NCBI GenBank assembly: GCA_045123255.1
Contig: JBGVIN010000069.1
Coordinates: forward strand, 1 to 60,028
Reading direction: 5' to 3'
Length of the DNA stretch: 60,028 nucleotides
Source: Eubacteriales bacterium
GTDB lineage: Bacteria; Bacillota; Clostridia; Oscillospirales; CAG-272
Position numbers and translations under genes: made by a program. The notes below the pieces were generated by a model that had not been told where the DNA came from, searched no databases, and saw nothing but the letters and a program-made list of their open reading frames with translations. The stretch's first letter is position 1, and each line of letters begins with the position of its first letter. Of this stretch, positions 18,508-37,127 are shown in pieces.

Positions 18508-19770
18508 ATGGATTTTAATGGAAAAAAACTTTTAATTTTAGGCGGAGCTAATTTGCATTGCAAGTTGGTTAAAGCTGCAAAGGAAATGGGAATTTATACT
18601 ATAGTTACAGACTACTTAACAGAGTCGCCTGCAAAGAAAATAGCTGATAAAAGCTATATAATTGATATAAATGATATTGACGGAATGGTTAAGATGTGTA
18701 AGGAAGAAAATGTCGATGCTGTGCTCAGTACCCATCTTGATCCATGCCAAAGACCGTATTATGAGATTTGCCATAGGTTAGGTCTGCCTTGTTACATAGA
18801 TACGTGGGAACAGGTTTATACGTTGACCGACAAGGATGCTTTCAAAGAGCTCTGCGTTAAAAATGGAGTGGATATCATTCCTACCTACTGCATGGAAAAT
18901 TTAAGCGAGGCAGAATTTCCCGTTTTAATTAAGCCTGCGCACAGCCGAGGATCGCGAGGACAAACTGTGTGTTATAGTTTGAATGAGACAGAAAAAGCAA
19001 TTACTTTGGCAGAAGCGGAATCTGATAATAAAAAAGCCATTATTGAAAAATATATGGGTAATAATAATGATTTTACTATGACATATATTTTCAAGGATGG
19101 GGTTGCCTATATGACGAAAACTTCAGATAGATACTTAGGAGACTTAGAGTTAGGACTTGAAAAGGTAGGAATAGGAACAATTTCTCCTTCTTATTATACT
19201 GATATGTATACGGAAAAGGTTGAATCTAAGGTTCTGAAGATGCTTTGTGACCTGAAAATCAAGAATGGTCCGGTGTTTATGCAGGGATTTGTCGATGGGG
19301 AAACAGTTCGATTCTATGACCCCGGTTTTAGATTTCCAGGAAGTGAATACGATACGATGTTTGAAAAGATTTGGAACATCGACATAATGAAAATGATGGT
19401 TTGCTTTGCATTTACCGGAAAAATGAAAGACGATTATGGTGAATTGAATCATCAACTTGCACTTTTGAAAGGGAAAAACGTAATTACTTTGTTCCCGCCT
19501 ATGAAAAGTGGATATATATCAAAAATAGAAGGATTAGAGGAAATAGCTAATATGCCGCAGGTGACAGGGTATACTTTGCGCCACAATGTGGGGGAAACGG
19601 TCGGATTTACGAGAGATGTTAATCAAAGATTTGGCGAATTTGATATCATCGGTGAGAATTTGGACGAACTGAAGAAAATAATTGAAAAGGTTCAAAATGT
19701 TTTAAACGTCCTTGATGAAAATGGCAATAATTTGTTGTACGGAGAATTAAAAGTCGAACAAATTCATTAA
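18508..19770 (+). CDS. ATP-grasp fold ligase
   Basis: KKLLILGGA, TDKDAFK, FPVLIKPAHSRGSRG, IIEKYM, FYDPGFRFPG. Confidence 0.85.
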   Translation: MDFNGKKLLILGGANLHCKLVKAAKEMGIYTIVTDYLTESPAKKIADKSYIIDINDIDGMVKMCKEENVDAVLSTHLDPCQRPYYEICHRLGLPCYIDTWEQVYTLTDKDAFKELCVKNGVDIIPTYCMENLSEAEFPVLIKPAHSRGSRGQTVCYSLNETEKAITLAEAESDNKKAIIEKYMGNNNDFTMTYIFKDGVAYMTKTSDRYLGDLELGLEKVGIGTISPSYYTDMYTEKVESKVLKMLCDLKIKNGPVFMQGFVDGETVRFYDPGFRFPGSEYDTMFEKIWNIDIMKMMVCFAFTGKMKDDYGELNHQLALLKGKNVITLFPPMKSGYISKIEGLEEIANMPQVTGYTLRHNVGETVGFTRDVNQRFGEFDIIGENLDELKKIIEKVQNVLNVLDENGNNLLYGELKVEQIH

Positions 19771-19783
19771 CTGGGAGGAAAAT

Positions 19784-21058
19784 ATGCCACTTGATATATT
19801 AAGTTTAATAATTTTTATAGTTTGCATTGGAATTTTTATATGGGACAGACTTCCAATGGCAACAACTGCTATACTTGGATGCGTGGCGATGGTTTTGTTC
19901 GGCGTTTGTGATTTCAAAACAGCGTTTGGACAATTTGCTTCAAGTACGGTGATCTTGACAATAGGAGTAATGGTGATCGGTGCAGCTATTTCGGAGACTG
20001 GCTTGGCCGCAACGATAGGTGCTTGGATTGTAAAGATATCCAAGGGATCGGAGACAAAGCTAATTATAGGCACATATTTGGTTTCTTCAGCTATGTCTGC
20101 ATTCTTAACCAACTCTGCGGTTCTTGCCATATTCATTCCTATAATTATGGGATTGTCTGCCTCCAATCAAAACATTCGCGCCAAAAATTTAATTATGCCG
20201 ATAGCATTTGGTTGTGTAATCGGTGGTGCATCTACGCTTGTCGGCTCCACACAGCAAATGACCGCACAAGGACTTTTAGAGGAGGCAGGTCTTAGAACCT
20301 TTAAAACATTTGATTTCACATTGGTAGGCGGCGTGCTTATTCTTTTAGGACTTGTATATTGCCTCACAATAGGCAGAAAGCTTGCAAAAAGGATTTGGGA
20401 AAAGGAAGATGAAAGTAGCGACGTTGAATATTCGATTCCGCAAGATCACCCCCAAAAAGGAAAGGCTAAAAAAATAATAATTGCCGTTATTTTCTCTTTG
20501 ACAGTATTGTTTTACATTACCGAGTGGGTTCCGCTTGCCGTTACAAGCACAACAGCGGCATTACTTTGCATAATTACAGGATGCATAACTCAAAAAAAGG
20601 CGATAACCGCGGTCAACTGGAACATAGTTGGTAGACTTGGCGGATGCCTTGGTCTTGCTAAAGCATTGGAAGCTGCTGGGGGTACGGATCTTATAGCTAA
20701 AGGATTTAGCTATTTGATTGGCGATAAACTCAGTCCGTTTATTCTTTTCTGCATATTGGTTTTATTAATTCAAGTGAGTAGCGAATTCATGTCGAATTCG
20801 ACAGCTATATTGGTAGTTTTGCCAATAGTTATTGCAATAGCTCCGGGCTTGGGCTTAAACACATACGCGTTCGCGCTTGGAATAACGCTTGCATCAGGAG
20901 TAGCATTGAGCTGTCCACTTGCGAGCTCTACACTTGGAATGTCGATGTGCGTTGGATATAAGTTTAAGGACTATGCAAAATATTCATTAATATTCGATGC
21001 GATTTCATACATAACAATAATTGCACTTGTTCCGTTAATTTACGGATTGAAGGCATAA
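19784..21058 (+). CDS. SLC13/DASS-family anion (di/tricarboxylate or sulfate) permease
   Basis: SAFLTNS, GGASTLVGS, SEFMSNS motifs in two inverted halves; many TM segments. Confidence 0.85.
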   Translation: MPLDILSLIIFIVCIGIFIWDRLPMATTAILGCVAMVLFGVCDFKTAFGQFASSTVILTIGVMVIGAAISETGLAATIGAWIVKISKGSETKLIIGTYLVSSAMSAFLTNSAVLAIFIPIIMGLSASNQNIRAKNLIMPIAFGCVIGGASTLVGSTQQMTAQGLLEEAGLRTFKTFDFTLVGGVLILLGLVYCLTIGRKLAKRIWEKEDESSDVEYSIPQDHPQKGKAKKIIIAVIFSLTVLFYITEWVPLAVTSTTAALLCIITGCITQKKAITAVNWNIVGRLGGCLGLAKALEAAGGTDLIAKGFSYLIGDKLSPFILFCILVLLIQVSSEFMSNSTAILVVLPIVIAIAPGLGLNTYAFALGITLASGVALSCPLASSTLGMSMCVGYKFKDYAKYSLIFDAISYITIIALVPLIYGLKA

Positions 21059-24240: not shown

Positions 24241-25530
24241 TTAGCTATCGCTTAAAAAGTGAAGGGCGAGGGCGGTCAAGGTGGCGGCGCCGAAGGGGAG
24301 CGCGCGCTCGTCGAATATAGCTTTTGGATTGTGCAGTGGGTATGAAAAGCCCTCGCTTGGCTTTCCCGTGCAAAGACCTATTAGAAGTGAGGGCGCGTGC
24401 TTGGCAAAAACCGCAAAATCCTCGCTTGGAGTGCTTGATTTTATTTTTGATTTCGGTGCAAGTATAACGCTTGCTTTGTGTGTGATTTTTGAGTTTGAAT
24501 ATAGTGATTTCAGACACTCCTCGGCACTTTTTGCTAATTCTTCGTCGCAAAACAATGCTTCTGTGGAGCTTGTTATTTCCAAATTTGTGTTGCATCCGTG
24601 CATTTGTGATGTTTGGTTGCAAATTGCGTTCAATTCTTTGAACGCGGTTCGCCTTGCATCCTTTGAAATTGCCCTCGTCGTGCCGAAGATTTCGCATCTT
24701 TCGGGGATAACGTTCGGTGCGCTTCCGCTTGATATTTGACAAATGCTAACCGTGAAGCCTTCGGGGTTGGCTTTTGACAGGCTCTCGCTTTTCAACGCAA
24801 TAGACGCTCCGCAAATTGCGGCGTTTTTGCTTTCCGACGGAGTTGCACCGTGCCCACCCTTGCCGTTAACCTCAATTTTGAAAAAATCCGCATACGGTGC
24901 GCTCATTTCGCTGCTTGGCAATATCAGCGTCCCTGTTTCGTACTCTGTTCCCAACACAATGTGTAAAGCAAAGCAAGCGTCCACCGTGGGATTTTCAAGC
25001 ACGCCCGCATCTACCATTTTCTGCGCTCCGCACAGTATCTCCTCCGCGCTTTGGAAGGCGAGCTTTACAGTGCCGCAAAATCTATCTCGGCTTTGGCTTA
25101 AAATGTGCGCCGCACCCAAAAGCGAAGCTGTGTGCATATCATGACCGCACGCGTGCATATTGCCATTTTTCGAACGGTAGCTTAATTCCGTTTCCTCACG
25201 AATCGGTAGTGCGTCAATGTCCGCGCGGAGTAGCACGCACCTGCGATTTTTTGGTGAAGTCTTTCCCTCGTCCGTAACCTCCGGGCTTTCTTTTTCGTCT
25301 ATATAGTTGAAGGAAGAAAATTTCTTTTCGTCGCCTCCGTGTATTTCGCAAACGACACCGCCGCCAGATAGCCGAGGGCTTAACCCCATCTTTTTCAGCT
25401 CGCGTGCGATAAATTCTTTTGTTTTTTCCGTTTCAAAGCGCACTTCAGGCATGGCGTGGAGCTTGCGCCGCCAGCTTATTAGCTTGTCTTCAATTTCAAA
25501 GCATTCTTCTAAAATTCGATAGTATTTCAT
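24241..25530 (-). CDS. M20 family amidohydrolase
   Basis: RRKLHAMPE, LRADIDALP, MHACGHD, FQSAEE, SEDF, LHNP. Confidence 0.92.
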   Translation of the reverse strand: MKYYRILEECFEIEDKLISWRRKLHAMPEVRFETEKTKEFIARELKKMGLSPRLSGGGVVCEIHGGDEKKFSSFNYIDEKESPEVTDEGKTSPKNRRCVLLRADIDALPIREETELSYRSKNGNMHACGHDMHTASLLGAAHILSQSRDRFCGTVKLAFQSAEEILCGAQKMVDAGVLENPTVDACFALHIVLGTEYETGTLILPSSEMSAPYADFFKIEVNGKGGHGATPSESKNAAICGASIALKSESLSKANPEGFTVSICQISSGSAPNVIPERCEIFGTTRAISKDARRTAFKELNAICNQTSQMHGCNTNLEITSSTEALFCDEELAKSAEECLKSLYSNSKITHKASVILAPKSKIKSSTPSEDFAVFAKHAPSLLIGLCTGKPSEGFSYPLHNPKAIFDERALPFGAATLTALALHFLSDS

Positions 25531-25794
25531 AAGCACCTCACTTGGTTAAATTCTTGCCCGAAAAATGAAAAAATATTCCTAATTAAACTAAATAAGCAAC
25601 CGAAAAGGTGGCATTTTGAAGCATTTTTGGACTGTGAAAAAACGCGTTGCTTGCGAAAAAAATCAGATTCGTAAAGTGGAAAATATCTGAACGAAAACGC
25701 CTTGTGTGAAAGTTATGTGAAATGTCTACGAAAAGTTTATGAGACGAAACTGAAACTTTGGAATTTGGCAACATTTTTTATTTATAATGTGATA

Positions 25795-26143
25795 GACTGT
25801 CAGTGGCAAAATATGCCACATCGCAAGACCCCATCTTGCCGATTAAAATGCTTTTATCGCACTCTTCGGGGATGCGCTAAATAGTTCTAATCCGTAAACT
25901 AAATTTGATGAAAAGGAGTGGTTTTAAGAGCCGAACGGCTAAAATGCGAGCTTGCCCGTCTGCTTTGGGTGAGGCTCAAATCGTTGTCCGACGTGCATAA
26001 GAAAAATGCATATCATTCGACGAGGGAGTAACCGTGGTATGCCCAAGTGAATTAACCAATGAAAACGGGTTCACAGGGGCATATTACGGTTGCAAAACCC
26101 GAAAAAGAATGCCAAAATTTCAAAAACGCACGTGAAATTTGGC
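25795..26143 (+). ncRNA. Candidate structured non-coding RNA (family not recognised)
   Basis: Run of 8-9 adjacent hairpins, cUUCGg tetraloop, G-U pairs favouring the + strand, TATAAT at 25783-25788, no credible ORF. Confidence 0.5.
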
Positions 26144-26243
26144 AAAAAGTGATAAAAAATCAAGTTTTGAAACTTGTCGCGGAAATCAAATTTTGTGCAT
26201 AACGCCGAAAAAACGCGAAAAGTTGCTTTTGGATTTATTTTTA

Positions 26244-26272
26244 TTGCAAAAAACAGATGTGCGTGATATAAT
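26244..26272 (+). promoter_or_regulatory. sigma-A promoter of MoxR/vWA operon
   Basis: TTGCAA-17 nt-TATAAT with TG extension; AGGAGG RBS downstream. Confidence 0.8.
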
Positions 26273-26301
26273 TATATAGTAAAATACTATAGGAGGTATT
26301 T

Positions 26302-29300
26302 ATGAATCTTCAAAATTTATTAAAGCCCTATAAGAAAAAGATAGTGCTTGAGGCTGTTATCAGAGCAATAGCTGTTGGCTTGCTCGCAGGTCTCGTGGCA
26401 ACACTCATCTGTGCTTTGGCACTCGGAGGCACGGGCGTTGGCGTTAAGGCTGCGTTCACCTTCTGGATGTACCAAGACATCCCTGGATGGGTTGATATCG
26501 TAATAGGCGCAGTTAACGTGGCGGCTTCTTTAGCAGCCGGACTTATCGTAGGAATTATCTCAGGTGTGGCTATGTACCTCGTATCCTACAAAAAGGGAAA
26601 TAAGCAAATTGCAAGAAAGGTTGACTCACTCGGCCTTGAAGAGCGTGTTGTTACCATGATGGAGTACCAAGAGGACACATCACTCATCGCTCAAATGCAA
26701 AGACAGGACGCACAAAAGAAATTGAACGAGTTCAATCTCGAAGCGGTTACCGTTAAATTCCCCGTTGAAAAAATACTTTCAGCAGTTGCACTTTTGCTTG
26801 CTGTATTGATCGTATTTACAACAATTCCACTCGTTTCACATGCTATTGATATTAAGAGAGAAGAAATCGAAGAAAATAACGATTCAAGCAGCAGTGAACA
26901 AACAAAGGAAGAAATTCTTGAGGAAATTGACAAGATTATTCAAGAGGCTCCTATCACAGAGGATAAGAGAGAAGAGCTTGAAGAGGTAAAGGATGAGCTT
27001 GACCAAAAGCTTGAGCAAGAGGACCTTTCCACAGAACAGGAAAACGAAGCTATCCAAGATGCAATCAAAGACTTTGAGCAGGTTGTAGAAGAGGAAGAGC
27101 AAAAGATTATCAGCCTTATCGAGGCACTCAAGGAAAATTCAATCACAAACGAGCTTGGCTGTGCTATCGAGGAGCTTTTCAACGCTGTAAGATCAGCTGA
27201 AAAGAACACCTTGGAAATCCAAAAGGGCAAGGACGCAGTTACTGCCGCTATGGAAAACTTAAAGTCAAAGCTTAACAGATCCAGAATCACATATGCACAG
27301 TTAAAGACAGCTATCAACACAGCAATTGAGGTTGCATCAGTACCTCAAGATATGCACGCACTTAAGGTTGCGCTTCTCGGCTTCTGCGACAACTTGACAG
27401 AGATGGAGCAAGCAGAGAACAGCCCAACAATGTCAGAATCCACAATTCTTAAGGTTATCGAGGACGGCTTTGCTGAATCCACAAAGAATATTATCGAGGC
27501 AGTTGAGGACATTAAGGACTTGCAGGAAACCGTAGACCAAATCAAGGAAAAGCTTGAAGACTATCAGGATGAGGTTATCGGTGAGCTTGAAAACAAGGTT
27601 GAGGATAAATTTGAGGAAATGGAAGAAGAAATCAAAGAATCCGATATGACCGAGGAAGACAAGAACGAAATGCAAGAGGAGCTTGATAAGGTTAAGGAAG
27701 AAATCGACGAAATCCTCAAGGACGAAAACATGACCGAAGAGGAAAAGAAGGACGCGGTTGAGGACGAATTAAGAGATTTCGAAAATGACCTTAAGGAAGA
27801 AATCGAGCAAGAAAAGGAATCAAACGAGCAAATCGCTGAAAACTTGAAGAACAATGAGCTCAAGGAAAGCGAAGACGAAACCGAAAAGGAAATGGGCGAG
27901 GCTCTTGAAAAAATCGGCGAAGCAATCGAGGATATGAACAAGGCTGAAACCGAGCAGGAAAAGCAAGACGCTCAGGACAAGATCGACGAAGCACTCAAGG
28001 ACCTCGAGGACCTTATCAACGGTAAGGATCCTGAAACAAACGAGGACAAAAACTTAACAGACGAAGAAAAGCAAGAAAACGCTGACAAGGTTGCAGACGC
28101 AATCCATAACGCAGTTACAACAACTCCCGACTCCGAAATGAAGGATTCAATGGAAGAGTTTGTAGACGACCTCAAGAACGCAACGGACAATGCTGAAAAG
28201 AACGAAACAAGCACCGAAGAGGAAATCAAGGATGCTTTCGATAAGGTTCAGGAAAATATGTCCAACTCAAGCGAAAAGCTTGATACAAAGGAAGAAATTA
28301 AGGAAGACGTTGGCGAATTAAGAGAGGAAATCATCGGTAGCGCGGAGAAGGAATTCAAGGACGCAATCGACGATATCAAGGATAAGGTTGACAACTCCGA
28401 TATCAGCAAGGACACACAAAACAACATTGACAAGGTTCTTGAAAACCTTGAAAACAAGGTTGAGGATATGCTTGATAACAACGCTGACAAGTCAGATATC
28501 AACTCCGAAATCAACGATGCCAAGGAGCAAATCGACCAAATGATTAAGGACGATATGAACAACAAGGCAGACGAGTTCAAGCCAAGTGATAAAAACGAGG
28601 GCGGCGAGCAAGAGGACAGCGAAAATCAAGACGGCGAGCAGCAAGAGGGCGAAAATAGCGACATTCAGGACGCTATGAACGACATCAATCAATCAATCCA
28701 AGACGCAAACAACGCAGCTCAAAAGAATGACCAAAGCGCTATGGAGGATGCAAAGGATTCACTTCAAGAAGCATTCGACAAGCTTGAAAATCAGCTCAAA
28801 AACGAAAACGGCGAATGGCTTAAGGGCGAAGCTCTTGACAAGGTTCTCGGCGAAATGACTGAGGACTTCAAGGACATGGCAGACAGCATGCCTGACGGCG
28901 AAGCGAAGGACATTTGGAACGACCTTGCAAACTCATTTGAGCAAGCAAAGGATCAAGCAGGCGAAAACAAGGACGAGGAGGCAGTAGGTACTGCTAAGGA
29001 CGCTCTTGATAACGCAGAGCAAAAGTTTGAAAACGCAATGGGCAAGCTTGAAAACATGGGTCAAACAAACCAAGACATTCAAGATAAGCTCGACGATGCA
29101 CAAAACGCAATCTCGGGTCAAAAGCCAAACCAAGACCAACAACAGGGTCCAAGTGAGAATGAAAAGCCAGAAGAGGGCGAAAATAGCGACCAACCGACTG
29201 ATGACCAACAACAGGGTCAACAGGGTGAGGGCGAGCAAAAGCCTGACGAGGAAAATCCTGATGGCGACGGCGACTCCGAGGAGCAAACTCCACCAAAGGA

Positions 29301-29505
29301 TGAAAACACATCTACAGGCGGTAGCGGCGAAGAGAAAAAGGATACAGATGCGTTTATCCCGGGTATGGGAAGCACAACTCTTGAGGAGCTTATCCAAAGC
29401 GGCGCATTTGATGGCGAGTACGACAAGCAGTTCGGCAGAGATTTAACTGACGAAGAGCGTCAAGCTATCGAAAACTACTTCCAGTCATTGAAGGGCAACG
29501 GCTAA
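26302..29505 (+). CDS. Large membrane-anchored acidic helical-repeat protein (MoxR-operon associated, DUF4175-like architecture)
   Basis: Three N-terminal TM helices with ARKVDSLGLEERVVT loop; E/D/K-rich helical body; Q/E/G low-complexity tail; C-terminal LTDEERQAIENYFQSL. Confidence 0.75.
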   Translation: MNLQNLLKPYKKKIVLEAVIRAIAVGLLAGLVATLICALALGGTGVGVKAAFTFWMYQDIPGWVDIVIGAVNVAASLAAGLIVGIISGVAMYLVSYKKGNKQIARKVDSLGLEERVVTMMEYQEDTSLIAQMQRQDAQKKLNEFNLEAVTVKFPVEKILSAVALLLAVLIVFTTIPLVSHAIDIKREEIEENNDSSSSEQTKEEILEEIDKIIQEAPITEDKREELEEVKDELDQKLEQEDLSTEQENEAIQDAIKDFEQVVEEEEQKIISLIEALKENSITNELGCAIEELFNAVRSAEKNTLEIQKGKDAVTAAMENLKSKLNRSRITYAQLKTAINTAIEVASVPQDMHALKVALLGFCDNLTEMEQAENSPTMSESTILKVIEDGFAESTKNIIEAVEDIKDLQETVDQIKEKLEDYQDEVIGELENKVEDKFEEMEEEIKESDMTEEDKNEMQEELDKVKEEIDEILKDENMTEEEKKDAVEDELRDFENDLKEEIEQEKESNEQIAENLKNNELKESEDETEKEMGEALEKIGEAIEDMNKAETEQEKQDAQDKIDEALKDLEDLINGKDPETNEDKNLTDEEKQENADKVADAIHNAVTTTPDSEMKDSMEEFVDDLKNATDNAEKNETSTEEEIKDAFDKVQENMSNSSEKLDTKEEIKEDVGELREEIIGSAEKEFKDAIDDIKDKVDNSDISKDTQNNIDKVLENLENKVEDMLDNNADKSDINSEINDAKEQIDQMIKDDMNNKADEFKPSDKNEGGEQEDSENQDGEQQEGENSDIQDAMNDINQSIQDANNAAQKNDQSAMEDAKDSLQEAFDKLENQLKNENGEWLKGEALDKVLGEMTEDFKDMADSMPDGEAKDIWNDLANSFEQAKDQAGENKDEEAVGTAKDALDNAEQKFENAMGKLENMGQTNQDIQDKLDDAQNAISGQKPNQDQQQGPSENEKPEEGENSDQPTDDQQQGQQGEGEQKPDEENPDGDGDSEEQTPPKDENTSTGGSGEEKKDTDAFIPGMGSTTLEELIQSGAFDGEYDKQFGRDLTDEERQAIENYFQSLKGNG

Positions 29506-29579
29506 TAATAAAAATTAGCCAATCGCTCTTTACAATAAAAAACACAACGAAATCAAATTAAAGTTTACGGAGAAGAATT

Positions 29580-30752
29580 ATGGGAACTATTGAAACAAAA
29601 GATACAAAAACAACACAAGCAGCTGAATCAGCTGCACCTGTAGCGGCAGCTCCTGCAGCAGTACCTGCACCAAAGGCAGCACCTGCAATTGATCCTAAGG
29701 CGGCTGAGGAATTAAAGCTTTTCGCTGAAAAGTGCGAAAGAATTTTCCGCGAGGTTAAGAAGGATATCATCGGTCAAACAGAGGTTGTTCAATATACAAT
29801 TATTGCAATTATCGCAGGCGGTAACGTGCTTCTCGAGGGTGCGCCGGGTCTTGGTAAGACACGTCTTGTTAGATCACTCGGTCAAGTATTCGACCTTCCA
29901 TTCTCAAGAATTCAGTTTACACCTGACTTGATGCCTGCCGACGTAACAGGTACAAACATCATCACAAGAGACGAAAACGGCAACTCAAAGTTTGAATTCC
30001 AAAAGGGTCCAATCTTTAGTAACATCGTGCTTGCCGACGAAATTAACCGTGCTACTCCTAAGACACAGGCGGCTCTTCTTGAGGCGATGCAGGAGCACAA
30101 GGTTACAGTAATGGGCGAAAGCCGCAAGCTTAACGAGCCATTCTTCGTTCTTGCTACACAGAACCCAATTGAACAAGACGGTACATACCCACTTCCTGAG
30201 GCTCAGATGGACCGTTTCATGTTCAAGATTATAGTTCCCAACCCTTCTGCTGAAGAGCTTGGACAAATCGTAACAATGACACAAAAGACTATGGATGAAA
30301 CAGCACAGGCTGCTTGTAACGGCGAAGAGCTTCTCCGTATGAGATCTGTTGCTAAGACAATTCCTGTAGCTAAAGAGGTTCTTGATTACGCAATGGTATT
30401 GGTTGCTTCAACTCATCCCGACAGTGAGGTTGCAACCGCAACAACAAAGAGATACATCCGTCTCGGCGCATCTCCTCGTGCTGCTCAGGCTCTTATCACA
30501 GCAGCTAAGGTTCGCGCTCTTATCAGAGGCAGATATAACGTTTCATACGACGACATCAACGCACTTGCAGTTCCTGTTCTCCGTCACAGAATTAAGCTCG
30601 GCTTCGAGGCAGTTACATCTAAGATGAACGCTGACGACGTAGTTCTTTCACTTATCAGAGACTTGAACAGTGCAGGTAAGGGTGCAGAGGTTAACACTCT
30701 CGCAACAAAGAAGCCTGCTGCAGCTCCTGCGGCTAAGCCAGCAAAAAAATAA
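29580..30752 (+). CDS. moxR: MoxR-family AAA+ ATPase
   Basis: LLEGAPGLGKT, RIQFTPDLMPAD, LADEINRATPKTQ, ATQNPIEQDGTYPLPEAQMDRF, GASPR. Confidence 0.95.
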   Translation: MGTIETKDTKTTQAAESAAPVAAAPAAVPAPKAAPAIDPKAAEELKLFAEKCERIFREVKKDIIGQTEVVQYTIIAIIAGGNVLLEGAPGLGKTRLVRSLGQVFDLPFSRIQFTPDLMPADVTGTNIITRDENGNSKFEFQKGPIFSNIVLADEINRATPKTQAALLEAMQEHKVTVMGESRKLNEPFFVLATQNPIEQDGTYPLPEAQMDRFMFKIIVPNPSAEELGQIVTMTQKTMDETAQAACNGEELLRMRSVAKTIPVAKEVLDYAMVLVASTHPDSEVATATTKRYIRLGASPRAAQALITAAKVRALIRGRYNVSYDDINALAVPVLRHRIKLGFEAVTSKMNADDVVLSLIRDLNSAGKGAEVNTLATKKPAAAPAAKPAKK

Positions 30753-30770
30753 TATAATTAGGCGGTAAAA

Positions 30771-31670
30771 ATGAAACGTAGAATATTAGACGGTGACTTT
30801 CTCGACCGTCTCGATGCCGCCGCACTTGTCTTAAAAACTGCTATGACGGGCTTCTTTGGAGGCTCCAGAAAAGCCCGCTCATACGGTAATACTGTAGAGT
30901 TTGCGGATTTCCGTGAATACACCGCAGGCGATGATATCAGAAGAATCGACTGGAACGTATTTGCAAGAACCGAAAAATACTTCATTAAATTATTTACAGA
31001 TGAAAGACAAATGCACAATCATATTATGATTGACTGCTCAGCTTCAATGGCTTGCGGAAACCCTGAAAAGGCGGAAGCGGCACTTAAAATAGCGGCAGCA
31101 TTCGGGTACCTTTCAGTAGCGGCGATGGACAGAGTTTCCTTCGAGCTTCTTAAGGGTGATAAGGCTGAGAATATCGGCTTTACAGTTGGTAACAAGGATT
31201 CCTTCTATCGTGCGGCTCAAAAGCTTGAAACGACTGATTTTGACGGTGAAACAGACCTCGAAAAATCAATAGTAAATATGGAATCCCCCGGATACGACGA
31301 TGGTCTTACAATAATTATTTCAGACTTTTTGACAGACTCAAACTGGAAAAAAGCCATAGATTTTCTTATGTACCAGCGTAGGGAAATCTTAATGATACAG
31401 GTTCTCTCTCCCGACGAGCTTTATCCCGACCTTGACGGCAGAATTCAAATGCTTGACTCTGAGGCGGTTGATATCGGCGACGGCAGAAATATGAGAATGA
31501 TCATGACAAAGAAAATGGTAAAAGCTTATCAAAAGGCGCTTGACGAGTTTGAACAAGAGCTTATCAACTTCTGTGCTTCAAGAGACGTAACGTTCTTCAC
31601 AGTATCAAGCGACGAGCCTATTGAGAAGGTTATTTTTGGAAAAGGATACGAAACGGAGATTATCAAATGA
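30771..31670 (+). CDS. DUF58 / vWA-domain protein
   Basis: EFADFREYTAGDDIRRIDW, IDCSASM, ISDF. Confidence 0.92.
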   Translation: MKRRILDGDFLDRLDAAALVLKTAMTGFFGGSRKARSYGNTVEFADFREYTAGDDIRRIDWNVFARTEKYFIKLFTDERQMHNHIMIDCSASMACGNPEKAEAALKIAAAFGYLSVAAMDRVSFELLKGDKAENIGFTVGNKDSFYRAAQKLETTDFDGETDLEKSIVNMESPGYDDGLTIIISDFLTDSNWKKAIDFLMYQRREILMIQVLSPDELYPDLDGRIQMLDSEAVDIGDGRNMRMIMTKKMVKAYQKALDEFEQELINFCASRDVTFFTVSSDEPIEKVIFGKGYETEIIK

Positions 31671-33856
31671 GCGTAGGTACATGGTTAGGTCTGCTGGGAT
31701 TAGTTGCAGTGCCGATTATTGTTTTGATATATATTATCAAATCAAAATATGTGCCTAAGACAGTCTCCAGTACATATATTTGGCAACGAAGCTTAAAGTA
31801 CGTTAAGCGTCGTATTCCAATCAATTTCCTTATGTCACTCTTGCTTATTATGCAAATCCTTGTAGTAGTAGCGGCTACTCTTGCTCTTATGGATATCAAG
31901 ACCGAGCCTAATAAGTCTCAGGCATCGATAGTGGTTGTCGATGCATCCGCGAGCATGAAGGCGCAAAACGGAGACAAAACACGTTACGAAATTGCGCTTG
32001 AAAAGCTTAAGGCAGAGGCGAAGAACGTTGGTCCTAACTCCGGTATGGTAATTATTCTTGCATCAGACGTGCCTGAGGTAATTACAGAGGGTAAGAAGTG
32101 GAACGAGGAGCTTCAAATCGAGGAAACAACTCCTTATCTTTACGACAAGGACGAGGTTATTTTAGCAATTGATAAAAAGCTGACTGACAGATGCACAAAC
32201 ACAAACACCGATATTAACGCGGCGCTTGATATGGCACAAAATGCAGTTAACTTAAATAAGGAAGCAAAAATTTATTTATACACAGACCGTCTTTATGACG
32301 ACAACGACACAGTTCAGGTAATTAACTGTGCTGACCCTGAAAACGACTGGAACGCAGGTATTATTTCCTTCACGGATACAAACCTTGCGGCAGGTTATGA
32401 GTATAGGGTAACGCTTATCAACGAGGGCAAGGAGGCAGAATTTGCTATTTCCTTAAACGTTGACGGCGGTATTGTTGCAACAAAGAAGGTTACAATGGGT
32501 AAGAGCGAAACTAAGGAGTTTGTGTTCAGCCCAAGATCAACAGACAACTCTGATGCTATTAAGATTAAGAGCATCAAGTCATATTCAAAAGCAGAGGTTG
32601 AAATTAACACGTCAACTGACGTTATCAGCGATGATAACAAGGCGTACCTAAACGCAGTTGAAGGCATCGATATCAGAATTCTTTATGTAAGTAACGCTGT
32701 AAAGATGTCAAACGGCGGAATAGATTACGTTTACCAAACCACACTTCAAAGAAGTATGGGTTCAAGCGGCTTCGTTATCAACACCTCTGACATTTTCCAC
32801 GCTTCACAAATCAAAGATGCACCGATGCACGGCTACGACTTATATATATATGAAGGAGTTATGCCTGTTTCGATGCCTAAGGACGGTGCGGTTTGGTTCA
32901 TAAATGCGCCAAGCAGTCCTGTTGGAACGAATATTGCAATTACTGACGTTGTTAAGGATGCGGCTGAGGCAGGAAAGGCGGACGGCTTTATGTTCGCAAA
33001 ATCCTCAATTGCACTCAAGCCAAATGCACAGCTTATCACAAAGAACGTAAACTTCGACGAGCCGATCAGATTTACAATTGACGGCGTTGAAAAGGCTATC
33101 CCCGCTGCGCTTAGCAAGTACACCATCATCGGTGAGGTTAACGATAAGACGGGTGAGGTTAAGTACACAATTCCTGAGTATTTTGAAGAGGTTTACAGCT
33201 GCTCGTACGATATAAAAATCGCTGATAAATACGTTACGGTTAAAACACCTGTAATGCTTGTCGGTACTGTTGGTACAACGAGAACCATCGTTACAACGTT
33301 TGACTTTACAAACTCCTCGCTTCCTGCATTTATTGCGGACTTCCCGGTTCTTCTTAAGAACATGGTGGAATACTCAATGCCTGAAACGTTGCCGGAGCGC
33401 ACACCTACAATAGGTGATAAGCTTCAGTTTAACGCTCCTGCAGGCGCAGAAAGCATTACATATTACTACAAGTCCTTCGAGGAGGAGGCAGAGGATCCAA
33501 CCTCACTCGGCAAAGAGGTAAACAGATGGGACGGCACAACCTTGCTTCTCCCTGACGTTATCCTTGACAAGCTCGGCATTTACAGCATTGTTGTAAACTA
33601 TACGCCTGAGATTGTATTTGACGAGGATGGAGAGCCCGTTGAAATCAAGGAAGAGCCTGATACGTTTGCTGTCAGCACGTACGTTCCGCTTTCCGAGAGT
33701 GATATTTCGGCAAGAGGTCCGCGTCTTTCTGCACCAACACCTGGTGAAGAGGCTCAAATAGACAGAAACGGACGTCCAATTCTTTGGATTGTAGTTTTGG
33801 TTCTTATCGCATTATTGATAGTTGAATGGGGGGTATATTACAGAGATGAGTATTAA
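31667..33856 (+). CDS. BatA-like N-terminal double-TM, vWA-domain membrane protein
   Basis: VPIIVLIYI...VSSTYIW BatA motif, VDASASM MIDAS, C-terminal TM ending LLIVEW. Confidence 0.85.
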   Translation: MSVGTWLGLLGLVAVPIIVLIYIIKSKYVPKTVSSTYIWQRSLKYVKRRIPINFLMSLLLIMQILVVVAATLALMDIKTEPNKSQASIVVVDASASMKAQNGDKTRYEIALEKLKAEAKNVGPNSGMVIILASDVPEVITEGKKWNEELQIEETTPYLYDKDEVILAIDKKLTDRCTNTNTDINAALDMAQNAVNLNKEAKIYLYTDRLYDDNDTVQVINCADPENDWNAGIISFTDTNLAAGYEYRVTLINEGKEAEFAISLNVDGGIVATKKVTMGKSETKEFVFSPRSTDNSDAIKIKSIKSYSKAEVEINTSTDVISDDNKAYLNAVEGIDIRILYVSNAVKMSNGGIDYVYQTTLQRSMGSSGFVINTSDIFHASQIKDAPMHGYDLYIYEGVMPVSMPKDGAVWFINAPSSPVGTNIAITDVVKDAAEAGKADGFMFAKSSIALKPNAQLITKNVNFDEPIRFTIDGVEKAIPAALSKYTIIGEVNDKTGEVKYTIPEYFEEVYSCSYDIKIADKYVTVKTPVMLVGTVGTTRTIVTTFDFTNSSLPAFIADFPVLLKNMVEYSMPETLPERTPTIGDKLQFNAPAGAESITYYYKSFEEEAEDPTSLGKEVNRWDGTTLLLPDVILDKLGIYSIVVNYTPEIVFDEDGEPVEIKEEPDTFAVSTYVPLSESDISARGPRLSAPTPGEEAQIDRNGRPILWIVVLVLIALLIVEWGVYYRDEY

Positions 33857-36800
33857 TTTATCCCTTTTATTCGCGGGCACGCTTAACTGGCCACTTCGTC
33901 CATGGGTGCTTTTAATCACAATTCCCGCACTTATTATCGGTATTATTCCATTTTTGCGTCTTAACAAAAAGCGTAGAGCGTCATCAAGACACTTAATTCC
34001 TTTTGTTATTCACATGGCACTTATTTTAATCCTTTCCTTAGTTGTTGCAGGTGTTTCCTATACGGAAAGCTACACTGAATCACAGGGTAAGGTTGTTATG
34101 TTCCTCGTTGATATGTCAGACAGTAGCGCACCTACCAAGGACGAAATGAACGACTATATGCACGAGGTTATGTCAGCGGCAAAAGCATCTGACAAAAAGT
34201 ACAAAACAGAAACAACGTTCGGTCTTGTTGTTTTCGGCGGTGCTGAAGGAAACGGCGTTATCAAAAATAGCGAGGGCAAGGACGTGTTGCTCCCGGGCGC
34301 ACTTGACTACGAAACGGAAAACTTCCTAAACGATTACGTTAAGGGCGAGGACGAAGCACCAAGAAAAGACACAAACATCAAGCTTGCTATTGAAAAGGCG
34401 CAAAACGCACTTTCTGCCGAAATGTATAAGGAATACACCAAAAAGGTAATTCTTCTTTCCGACGGTAGAGAAACAAACGGTAACTCATATTCCGCAGCTG
34501 CTGCGCTCGCAGGCGATAGCATTACGCTTGACTGTGCATATTTCGATTTCGTAAATAGCGAAAACGAGGATGCCGCTTACAAGGAAATTCAAGTAATTTC
34601 TCTTGATACAAACGGTGTTGTTAAGCTCGGCGAAGAGGTTGAGGCACAGGTTGTAGTAAACAGCATCTACCACGTTACCGACGCAACAATTATCTTAAAG
34701 GACGTTGCAGGCGTTCCGCTTACCGAGGTTAGCGGCGTTGTAATTCCTAAGGGACAAAGCACACACATCGTTAAGTTTACTCCAAGAAGATATACGGTAA
34801 GCGACGATGATTATGAAACAAACAATGAGCTTAAGGGTCAAGAGGCGGTATCAAAAACGGGCGTTCAAGCTATCTCCGTTGATATTACCACTAAAAACGA
34901 TACACTTCCGCTCAACAACATCTTCTCATCCTGGTACACATTTGAAACACAGGGACAAATCCTTGTTGTTTACGGTGACAGCACACAGCTTGAGCAGATT
35001 GAAGCTAACAACATTTTAGAGGATATGCGTTCAAAGTACACAGTTGATACCTGTGCACCAAGCGCATTCCCCGATACACTTGAAAAGATGCTCGTTTACG
35101 ATGAAATAGTTCTTATGAACGTTGATTTCACGCGCTTGGGTACAGGCTCGGAAATGGGAGTTTCTCCTATGACCATTGCAAGCAACATTAAGCGTTACGT
35201 TCAAGAAAACGGCCGTGGCTTGCTCTTTACAAGCGGTAATAACATTTATGACTACGATAACGAGGGCTTCATTGACTCACCAATCAACGACATTTTACCT
35301 GTTGAGCTTAAGGTTGATGAGGAAAAGGAAACCGTTGCTATGGTTCTTGTTATTGACCTTTCATCCTCAATGAAGGAAAAAATGGGCGAAAAGACAAGAT
35401 ATCAAATAGTTCTTGAGAGCGCAAAGAAGGTTATTATGGAATCCAACTTTGCACCCGAGGACTACATCGGTGTAGTTGTATTTGACCAGGACTATCACGT
35501 TGCGCTTGAAATTCAGCCGATAGGTGACGAAACCAACCGTGAAACCATTTGTGAAAAAATGGGCTACGAGATGGAGCATTACTACTATGCACACTATATC
35601 GACACAAAGACAGGCAAGGATAGTGATTACAGAATCAATCCAAAGGATAAGCACGTTCAAAAGGACGGAAAAACCTACCTCTATATTGAGGGTGAAGAGC
35701 CAAGATACCAGCTTCCTACCGGCGAATATAAGCGCGGCGGTGAGGACAAGGCAACGAGCGATTACATCAAGAGCTACGGTACGTCCTATAAATGGGCTGT
35801 TCAGGAGGCGAGCGCGATGCTCGGTAGAGCCTCCAACATTACAAGCATTGAAATTAAGCAAGTAGTATTTATGTCAGACGGTGCGCCAAACGATAAGGGC
35901 TCAGGCTATGAGGGTATCGTTGAGCGTATGGCAAAGGGCGGTACGGTAACGTCAACAATTGCTATCGGTATCAACAAGAGTGAGGCAACAGCTATTGCCG
36001 AGCTTGAAAAGATTTCCGCAGCAGGTAAGGGTAAAATCTTCCTTGTTAACAACGCCACCGACCTTGAAGAGGACCTCACTGAGATTGCAGAAAGCATTCA
36101 AGGTAAGCTCCTTAACACGGATATTACTGTTTTACCAATGCGTGACTCACTTAACTCCATCGTTCACGAGGGCGTAAGAGAGTACGATGAAATTCACGGC
36201 TACTACGGAACAACTATTAAGGATGGCGCAGAAAGAGTTATCTACGTTGACAACCTCCGTCCGCTTTATGCAGAATGGGAGTACGGTCTTGGTAAGGTAT
36301 GTGCTTTGATGACCGACCTTGGTAACGTTGACTGGACGGGTGAAATGTTCGACGATACTGACGGAATTGAAAACGTTCGTCTTGTTTCCAACATTTTGCT
36401 CTCGCCAATTTACAAGCGTGTTGACTCAACGGGTCTTGACTACACCGTTACAAGAGATGACAAGCGCATCGATATGACGGTTATGACTCCTGTTGATTTG
36501 GGAACGAGAAACCAAGCGGTTGACGGCATTTCCTACGAAGAGGTTATCCGCGCATCGGTTTACAAGTTTGACCAAACTAAGAAAATTTGGGTTGCTTACG
36601 GCACGTTCCACGCAACACCACTTGCAAACTGCAAGTATCAAGTGACAATCCCTACAGGCTCAATTGAAGAAACCTACGTTATAGTTCTTGACCTTTACAA
36701 GGCTCAGGTTGGCTACAACAGTGCAGGAAATAAGGCGTATTCACCGATTGAGTATGCAGTACACGGTGATGACCCGCTTCGCGATACGACTGCCTTGGCG

Positions 36801-37127
36801 GTTGTAGGTAAAACCCTTGAGGAATACGATATTCTAAGAGGTGGCTCAGATGCAGGCCGTGACCTTATGGAGGGCCTTGTAACAAGTAAGCTTGACGGAC
36901 TCGTTAACGGCAATGACTACAACCTTGACGAAATGTTCAGAAAGGAAGAGGGCGAGGACAAGACGGTAACTGAGGATTATAATATTGATATTCCGCTTAT
37001 CGCGATTGCGCTCATTCTCTTCGTGCTAGACATCATCTTCAGAAACTTCGTAATTAAGAAGAAGTCAAAGAAGAAGGGCGGCTATAAGACTGACGAAGAG
37101 GTTTACGAGTCAATGAGAGGTAGATAA
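33846..37127 (+). CDS. Double-vWA plus class I glutamine-amidotransferase-like domain membrane protein
   Basis: LVDMSDS...LSDG and VIDLSSSM...MSDG MIDAS pairs; YDEIVLMNV...YVQENGRGLL and WEYGLGKV segments; N- and C-terminal TMs; start reassigned to 33846. Confidence 0.85.
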   Translation: MSINLSLLFAGTLNWPLRPWVLLITIPALIIGIIPFLRLNKKRRASSRHLIPFVIHMALILILSLVVAGVSYTESYTESQGKVVMFLVDMSDSSAPTKDEMNDYMHEVMSAAKASDKKYKTETTFGLVVFGGAEGNGVIKNSEGKDVLLPGALDYETENFLNDYVKGEDEAPRKDTNIKLAIEKAQNALSAEMYKEYTKKVILLSDGRETNGNSYSAAAALAGDSITLDCAYFDFVNSENEDAAYKEIQVISLDTNGVVKLGEEVEAQVVVNSIYHVTDATIILKDVAGVPLTEVSGVVIPKGQSTHIVKFTPRRYTVSDDDYETNNELKGQEAVSKTGVQAISVDITTKNDTLPLNNIFSSWYTFETQGQILVVYGDSTQLEQIEANNILEDMRSKYTVDTCAPSAFPDTLEKMLVYDEIVLMNVDFTRLGTGSEMGVSPMTIASNIKRYVQENGRGLLFTSGNNIYDYDNEGFIDSPINDILPVELKVDEEKETVAMVLVIDLSSSMKEKMGEKTRYQIVLESAKKVIMESNFAPEDYIGVVVFDQDYHVALEIQPIGDETNRETICEKMGYEMEHYYYAHYIDTKTGKDSDYRINPKDKHVQKDGKTYLYIEGEEPRYQLPTGEYKRGGEDKATSDYIKSYGTSYKWAVQEASAMLGRASNITSIEIKQVVFMSDGAPNDKGSGYEGIVERMAKGGTVTSTIAIGINKSEATAIAELEKISAAGKGKIFLVNNATDLEEDLTEIAESIQGKLLNTDITVLPMRDSLNSIVHEGVREYDEIHGYYGTTIKDGAERVIYVDNLRPLYAEWEYGLGKVCALMTDLGNVDWTGEMFDDTDGIENVRLVSNILLSPIYKRVDSTGLDYTVTRDDKRIDMTVMTPVDLGTRNQAVDGISYEEVIRASVYKFDQTKKIWVAYGTFHATPLANCKYQVTIPTGSIEETYVIVLDLYKAQVGYNSAGNKAYSPIEYAVHGDDPLRDTTALAVVGKTLEEYDILRGGSDAGRDLMEGLVTSKLDGLVNGNDYNLDEMFRKEEGEDKTVTEDYNIDIPLIAIALILFVLDIIFRNFVIKKKSKKKGGYKTDEEVYESMRGR

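Follow-up and report, generated by a model that had tools for sequence, protein, structure and literature searches.

The STAB-SD of Bacillus thuringiensis cry3A, reportedly due to Agaisse and Lereclus in 1996 and to Mathy et al. in 2007, is among the described systems that come closest to the RNA considered here, and mRNA is also known to be protected by a hairpin at its 5' terminus. In cry3A a 30S subunit on a non-initiating Shine-Dalgarno (SD) sequence in a long leader blocks RNase J1 (PMC4113751), and in the hbs mRNA of Bacillus subtilis the leader is highly structured and a ribosome at a strong SD blocks the same enzyme (PMC5737220). Bat operons, for their part, are described as being under transcriptional stress regulation, with control by PhoP in Riemerella anatipestifer, where overproduction of MoxR lowers transcription of the bat operon (PMC11834572). 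Operons of this MoxR/vWA type occur widely, have been linked to stress tolerance and are little understood, and a literature search found no paper joining MoxR, vWA or aerotolerance operons with a noncoding RNA.

Here we describe a structured RNA upstream of such an operon in a window of 60,028 nucleotides (the whole stretch of DNA that was analysed, to which all positions refer). The genome from which it comes is designated G000, and the other G numbers denote relatives in its genus, the close ones being Clostridia/Eubacteriales MAGs from animal guts. An earlier note had pointed to 25795-26143 as a densely structured candidate RNA. Our own reading, which is drawn by analogy and to which we give a probability of roughly 0.45, is that the region would be a long structured 5' leader of the Bat-like operon, read through and equipped with a stabiliser resembling a STAB-SD.

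Genomic setting of the element

The structured element lies in a 765-nt spacer (25537-26301), flanked by an M20 peptidase gene that runs divergently on the - strand (24241-25536) and by a five-gene, Bat-like MoxR/vWA operon on the + strand (26302-37127). The operon encodes, in this order and all on the + strand, a 1067-aa membrane protein (26302-29505), a MoxR AAA_3 ATPase (29580-30752), a DUF58 protein (30771-31670), a BatA-N/vWA protein (31667-33856) and a vWA/GATase1-like protein (33822-37127). The first of these, whose membrane segments are N-terminal, matches no Pfam family, and its NCBIfam match is sub-threshold only. Its gene evolves fast (29-57% identity in the genus once the closest species are set aside). 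Across relatives the open frame at the match measures ~320 to 2470 aa, some of these frames standing at contig ends.

The 765-nt spacer occurs once in its own genome, so that the element is single-copy and the idea of a repeat or mobile element can be rejected. In all relatives examined the element precedes the first operon gene, usually with the M20 peptidase on the opposite side; in G004 and G018 its synteny with the operon is held even though the loci show no peptidase match. Moreover, in all loci that carry it the element is found between a distal promoter and the operon's own strong proximal promoter. The synteny with the MoxR operon that the earlier note had proposed to check is seen in every relative with the element, and a functional tie between the two is possible on the two grounds of synteny and co-transcription.

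A structured RNA kept by evolution

On the + strand, 25795-26143 reaches a minimum free energy (MFE) of -114.8 kcal/mol (ViennaRNA) versus -86.3 +/- 5.1 kcal/mol for 100 dinucleotide shuffles, none of which was as good (z -5.58); for the - strand z is -3.19. All eight hairpins that had been proposed by eye recur in the MFE or the centroid structure of the + strand of this stretch, the cUUCGg loop among them, and the region is, as stated before, GC-richer (0.42-0.48 over 25800-26100) than the DNA upstream (0.32-0.35) and downstream (0.28-0.32). At the 5' end of the + strand stand H1 (25803-25819), H2 (25820-25843, with the loop ACCCCAU) and H3 (25858-25876, with the UUCG loop). They are followed by three hairpins (25929-25940, 25948-25977 and 25981-26023) that make up a lineage-specific insert between the SD sequence described below and a conserved CGAC, then by hairpin D (26028-26093), a duplex of 22-24 bp that has three G-U pairs in G000 and is flanked by GGG (26024-26026) and CCC (26098-26100), and finally by hairpin E (26111-26143), with the conserved loop AAACGCAC.

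Is this structure under selection? With the hairpins taken as a fixed structure and G000 aligned to its two closest relatives, 93.8% of the cells of its 88 pairs were paired and 10 pairs had changed on both sides, figures that come from few sequences (three) and from a structure derived from G000, which favours the G000 structure. Sliding the partners by 1-3 columns left 32-41% paired, and the observed values were reached by at most 1 of 500 column shuffles. By helix, the same three species show 83-89% pairing with seven pairs changed on both sides in helices 1-3 (25803-25876), 93-100% pairing in helices 4-7 (25929-26023), and 93% pairing with two double changes in helix 10, that is, hairpin E. 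In G012, G010 and G001, other hairpins take the place of those at 25929-26023, and the stems of hairpin E differ in sequence while their pairing is retained. Hairpin D, which is present as such only in G000, G064, G014, G012, G010 and G001, is 99.2% paired over 22 pairs in these six species, with five pairs changed on both sides. Compensatory changes of the kind that the earlier note had asked for are seen in three species for the whole and in six for hairpin D.

The same comparison speaks to the strand. The G-U pairs of hairpin D in G000 are A-U in relatives, changes that fit the + strand only, and when a covariance model was built from 26018-26160, the six species gave 128-156 bits on their + strands versus 28-42 bits on their - strands; together they sustain the argument for the + strand that had been made from wobble pairs. 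Sequence identity is distributed unevenly along the RNA. The 5' hairpins (25803-25876) have an identity of just 0.51-0.60, less than that of third codon positions, and their folds are kept nonetheless. Towards the two closest species, third codon positions of the adjacent gene are at 0.69-0.74, the peptidase-proximal spacer is at 0.42 and hairpin D is at 0.84-0.94, a conservation well beyond the needs of pairing. The best conserved segment of the spacer is 25885-25925, with 0.90-0.93 to G064 and G014 and 0.77-0.90 to G012 and G010. Region 25795-26143 is a real structured + strand RNA kept by evolution, and our confidence that there is a genuine, transcribed and selected RNA structure at this locus is high.

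Known families and distribution

The failure of the earlier note to place the RNA in a known family is matched by the 4227 models of Rfam 15, none of which reached its gathering score anywhere in the window. In E-value mode, 25400-26400 returned three matches only, at E 6.1-8.1 and 9-22 bits versus thresholds of 72-90; these are noise, and they concern unrelated eukaryotic snoRNA models and a Streptococcus sRNA model.

BLAST found the element in the genus only, with 25780-26160 in 6 of 50 genomes and with the whole spacer in 9 of the 41 genomes of a mixed draw. An exact-pattern scan for hairpin D across 185,579 species genomes produced five records, all from the same genus, and none in a metagenome collection. 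The covariance model R1 matched none of 150 other genomes of the order, and none of the leader motifs was found upstream of weak or distant homologues of the first gene in nine other genera. Across these sequence searches, the element did not appear outside a single genus of uncultured gut Clostridia.

Leader or separate RNA

Two + strand promoters bracket the element. The distal one consists of a TRTG-type extended -10 (TGTG-A-TAGACT, 25788-25798) with no good -35. The TATAAT to which attention had been drawn is present (25783-25788) and is not the conserved element in relatives, in which TGnTAnAnT is kept at the alignment position of the distal -10; we infer a start near 25804-25806, at the foot of H1. 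The strong operon promoter that had also been claimed is present at 26244-26272, as a TG-extended TTGCAA-17-TATAAT with 10 of 12 consensus matches plus the TG and an AT-rich upstream block, 30 nt from the operon ribosome-binding site. A 21-nt pattern taken from this promoter recurs in metagenome contigs that fall into 14 sequence clusters with no relation to one another, each time ahead of unrelated genes, which marks it as a generic strong promoter type; the proximal promoter is in all likelihood real. The 81 metagenome loci retrieved by the pattern were rejected as relatives of the leader, all being unrelated, with no leader motifs and no R1 match. Separately, 56 of the 80 that were fetched (L058-L137) proved to be a single locus of another gut organism encountered in many samples, and the promoter type TTGCAAAAA-N7-TGCGTGWTATAAT recurs in gut Firmicutes.

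Does RNA made from the distal promoter end before the operon, or does it enter the first gene? No intrinsic terminator was found in 25400-26500 of G000, and a lenient scan of 29 relatives found none at a conserved place. Terminator-like matches occur within the leader in four of the 29 (G004, G018, G057 and G046), at differing places, and in six relatives the upstream gene ends in a clear terminator immediately ahead of the distal promoter. Public RNA libraries, whose contigs carry no strand and no transcript ends, whose depths are flat means and which may include DNA carry-over, contain, in three runs that belong to two studies, contigs that cross the proximal promoter and enter the first gene (X1, 26026 to beyond 27000; X2, 26094-26848; X5, 26103-26357). 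Other contigs from RNA libraries span 25849-26036 and 25821-26021. The 5' part is represented in X1 and X2 by separate contigs with about half the mean depth of the gene-carrying contig; no X1 or X2 contig lies on 25200-25809 and no X5 contig on 25444-26102, but contigs are incapable of showing absence, and these gaps were counted neither towards a start site nor against DNA carry-over. Taken together, the missing terminator and the bridging contigs favour a long 5' leader with read-through across the second promoter, which is weakly shown since contigs without strand or ends may derive from DNA. X6, a run with a small share, holds a 482-nt contig of mean depth 43.9 that matches 25885-25918 only and then passes into adapter; a CCCAUAAGG-type hairpin sequence stands just before the match, and the preceding sequence is unlike G000. 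This contig is probably the leader of a relative, deeper than the G000-like contigs of the other runs, and it was left out of account for habitat and abundance.

The earlier note had left the choice between an independent RNA and a long leader. Of the two the leader is now favoured, and a separate RNA has become less likely. Such an RNA, co-regulated with the operon and ~350 nt long (25804 to ~26160), would have a processed or factor-terminated end and an action of its own, either in trans or as the partner of a protein, transcription of the operon being leakage. It would have, as an sRNA gene should, its own promoter, for the conserved extended -10 is a consensus match and the element upstream of it resembles that of the operon promoter; the operon has a separate strong promoter, and conserved single-stranded motifs and loops combined with variable inserted helices are typical of the architecture of functional RNAs. 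The separate 5' contigs of X1 and X2, at about half the mean depth of the gene contig, point the same way. However, neither a terminator nor a discrete 3' end was found, though a factor-dependent or processed end is possible. With no intrinsic terminator in G000 and none conserved in the 29 relatives, with bridging contigs into the gene in three runs, and with an element that was not seen away from the operon (single copy; 0 of 150 other genomes of the order), an independent RNA falls on the unlikely side.

The orphan Shine-Dalgarno sequence and a stabiliser model

The feature of the leader that is easiest to interpret is an orphan SD, AAAGGAG (25912-25918, + strand), all 7 nt of which are complementary to the 16S rRNA 3' end of this genome; that its AAGGAG (25913-25918) has no start codon had been remarked on before, and rightly. 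Among 27 leaders of the genus, 22 have an SD-like match of at least 6 nt, and in none of the 22 does ATG, GTG or TTG follow 3-11 nt downstream. A clear SD is absent from G062 and from four species with short leaders (G007, G053, G056 and G061), so the orphan SD is not universal. Mononucleotide shuffles of the G000 leader contain a match as long as 7 nt in 21 of 200 cases; since shuffles equal the match this often, the case for the orphan SD has to be made from its conservation and from the avoidance of start codons. A gene for RNase J is present in the genome (636.7 bits; cut-off 400), and the two properties expected of a STAB-SD, complementarity to the 16S 3' end and failure to initiate, are both apparent at the level of sequence.

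By analogy with cry3A, the transcript from the distal promoter would start with a terminal hairpin, continue through the hairpin array and across the second promoter, and run into the first gene. Counted from the inferred start (~25804), the leader would measure ~440 nt as far as the proximal promoter and ~500 nt as far as the start codon. The orphan SD would bind the 3' end of 16S rRNA and open no reading frame. A 30S subunit parked there would act with the 5' hairpins to keep RNase J from degrading the message 5'-to-3', and long-leader messages would last longer under the condition that induces the distal promoter. We hold this stabiliser mechanism with moderate confidence. Because the near-consensus promoter of the operon is 30 nt from the ribosome-binding site, most message may lack the leader altogether. 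It is also conceivable that hairpin D, as a duplex of 22-24 bp, could be an RNase III site that severs the SD from the operon message.

Recurring motifs in a rapidly remodelled leader

The first operon gene was detected in 41 of the 50 genomes of the genus, and the layout common to the genus was taken from the upstream DNA of 30 of those 41 loci. The shared order begins with a TGTGAA-N5-TGTGAA repeat and accompanying blocks, followed by the TRTG-type extended -10, the transcribed region and a TTTGG-type motif, and closes with a TTGTGCA-N4-GMCRAAAA element, the strong proximal promoter and the ribosome-binding site. The transcribed region varies from ~100 to 340 nt, with a hairpin content that differs by clade, and three features recur in it: a CCCAUAA-type loop on a 5' hairpin, a CCGUAWAC motif, and an A-rich stretch with an SD-like end. 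The 5' hairpin with the loop was seen in eight further species, on stems unrelated in sequence, and the H2 loop ACCCCAU of G000 is a variant of the type. The second feature reads ATCCGTAAAC in G000 (25890-25899, + strand; genus consensus CCGUAWAC) and is predicted to be unpaired; it is present in 23 of the 30 loci, and in distant species BLAST finds the segment that holds it at 93-95% identity. A pattern of motif plus SD has two other genome matches, one inside a coding gene (C106) and one at 19184-19214 of the window, within ORF coordinates. Leaders of this genus thus evolve fast, hairpins being gained, lost and moved while three short motifs stay fixed, and such turnover around fixed short motifs is a reason why elements of this kind escape family-based searches.

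One relative, G052 (L040), departs from the rest in that the two strands of hairpin D recur before the CCGUAWAC motif, near the 5' end of the leader, enclosing ~190 nt. There the 5' strand of the hairpin-D sequence can pair instead with a nearby ACGGUG, followed by a run of six U, which is terminator-like; this possible alternative is the sole hint of a switch in the family.

What might the conserved motifs be for? A stabiliser role does not account for the conservation of the loop motif, of CCGUAWAC or of hairpin D, which look like binding sites and may be bound by proteins. The leader could accordingly be imagined as one that binds a protein or a ligand, with the loop, CCGUAWAC and the lower stem of hairpin D as sites that alter the fate of the leader or the translation of the first gene, the regulator possibly being an operon product or a global regulator. 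Two similar motifs, the CCCAUAA loop and CCGUAWAC, do occur genus-wide on unrelated stems and in unrelated contexts, hairpin D is kept in sequence (0.84-0.94) beyond what pairing needs, and G052 has it relocated before the CCGUAWAC motif; the effect of MoxR on bat transcription in Riemerella (PMC11834572) implies that feedback exists in such operons. Against this, the leader has no expression platform of the kind found in riboswitches or attenuators, there being neither a terminator nor a helix that sequesters the gene's ribosome-binding site, which is located behind the proximal promoter. Its conserved core is small and limited to one genus, unlike metabolite riboswitches, and no candidate binding protein was found, which leaves a binding leader improbable.

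Still less probable is a new class of structured ncRNA, made from the distal promoter, whose partner would be the Bat/MoxR-vWA machinery or the ribosome, co-transcription being secondary. One form that it could take, by loose analogy with Y RNA and the vWA-containing Ro, is a scaffold or cofactor of an operon protein; another is a 30S decoy that would act through the orphan SD and an anticodon-loop-like CCCAUAA hairpin. Two more specific ideas were tried and abandoned. Pairing of CCGUAWAC with the start-codon region of the first gene amounts to -3.4 kcal/mol in G000, and 173 of 200 shuffles are as good; strong pairing is limited to genes that open with AUGGA (G063, -11.3; G002, -10.4; G007, -9.9 kcal/mol), and the fit between the variable position of the motif and the -2 base, seen in five of five members of one clade and in 11 of 18 others, does not convince. 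The idea that the motif plus hairpin D mimics 16S helix 45 was dropped as well, the genome's own 16S reading GTAGCCGTATCGG and the shared words being at most 6 nt.

DNA-level elements of the two promoters

Upstream of the distal promoter is a direct repeat, TGTGAA-N5-TGTGAA (25705-25721, + strand), with an 11-bp period, after which come CGAAAA and a CTGAAAC/TTGAAT block. A strict regex places it at the same relative position in 14 of the 30 loci of the genus, and more have it in looser form. The repeat is a probable site for a DNA-level regulator, and its 11-bp phasing would suit a response regulator; given the extended -10, the lack of a -35 and the repeat upstream, the distal promoter is probably activator-dependent. 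As a marker of a specific regulon the repeat was rejected: the genome has four exact copies, and the other three lie in unrelated AT-rich spacers and precede unrelated genes. One exact copy, on C92 of G000 (L157, ~20300-20500, - strand), was seen by eye upstream of an apparent T-box-type leader and a pheS-like gene.

The other elements stand between the RNA and the proximal promoter. Motif f, the tail TTTGGC-AAAAAGTGATA (26138-26160, + strand), is conserved and overlaps the 3' end of the RNA. The TTGTGCA-N4-GCCGAAAA element (26193-26214, + strand), likewise conserved, begins some way ahead of the proximal promoter, ~50 nt from its -35, and is similar to the element that precedes the distal promoter. 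From start to start motif f and the TTGTGCA element are 54-56 nt apart in 25 of the 26 loci that hold both (e.g. L035, L044 and L048), the DNA between them is not conserved, and in two clades (G050/G046/G022/G059 and G063/G002/G007/G057) they form near-perfect inverted repeats of ~20 nt. An RNA helix between them was rejected, for the G000 clade lacks complementarity between them, as do loci whose element reads GACGAAAA; the geometry is that of DNA, and they look like paired operator sites. A TGTG(A/C)A...CGAAAA element is found ~72-75 nt before the -10 of both promoters (25705-25721 and 26193-26214). As a pair, the tandem promoters resemble a regulatory unit that has been duplicated.

Could the whole region, then, act mainly as DNA, its conserved blocks being operators of the two promoters and its RNA folds incidental? 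The fixed 54-56-bp spacing of TTTGG and TTGTGCA around variable sequence, which suits DNA geometry and not an RNA helix, their near-perfect inverted repeats in several clades and the TGTG-N-CGAAAA-type elements before both promoters would all agree with this. Yet such an account applies only to the 3' end (26138 onward) and the promoter regions, and DNA sites do not explain the compensatory and G-U-preserving changes and the strand asymmetry at 25803-26143, so that we leave it a very small chance. Next to no credence can be given to a translated leader peptide, in a frame from the SD region to the TAA within GAGTAACCG at the foot of hairpin D whose translation would remodel the leader, for although the frame is open back to the SD in four of six species (G000, G064, G010 and G001) and the net indels among the three closest species are multiples of three, it has no usable start (the only GTG overlaps the SD, and G001 is without any), in-frame stops in G014 and G012, local frameshifting indels that make the peptides unrelated, and no counterpart in most members of the genus, from which hairpin D is also missing; as a small gene, the ORF ending at this TAA was rejected on its broken or shifted frames and the lack of a proper start.

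Comparison with known systems

The long structured leader thus preferred belongs to a well-delimited, covariation-supported RNA that carries an orphan ribosome-binding site free of start codons in 22 related species, and the tandem-promoter layout could account for a conditional stabilisation of the message of a stress operon. raiA, OLE, ROOL and the T-box are large structured RNAs or leader motifs of Firmicutes in Rfam. The leader is like them in its length of hundreds of nucleotides, its many hairpins, its covariation, its narrow range and a function not assigned, and unlike them it has no match in Rfam 15. What is new is a structured leader that carries an orphan SD, is restricted to one genus and undergoes rapid remodelling there, situated between the tandem promoters of a Bat-like operon and belonging to no Rfam family.

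The bat operon of Riemerella is of the same kind (MoxR, DUF58, BatA/vWA), and its transcriptional stress control is a likeness; the regulators treated in that work are proteins and not an RNA leader, and the organism is unrelated. In hbs the protecting SD is the gene's own, whereas the SD of the present leader is an orphan far upstream, and the two have no similarity in sequence or structure. On the sequence features tested, the leader appears to resemble a STAB-SD or another 5' stabiliser and not a riboswitch, an sRNA gene or a gene for a small protein. The cry3A STAB-SD is near the 5' end of the stable transcript, while the SD of the leader is ~108 nt in, among conserved hairpins, and unlike in cry3A a second strong promoter stands between this SD and the gene. 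Shared by both are a long 5' UTR from a distal promoter, a non-initiating SD complementary to 16S rRNA, and a Firmicute host with RNase J.
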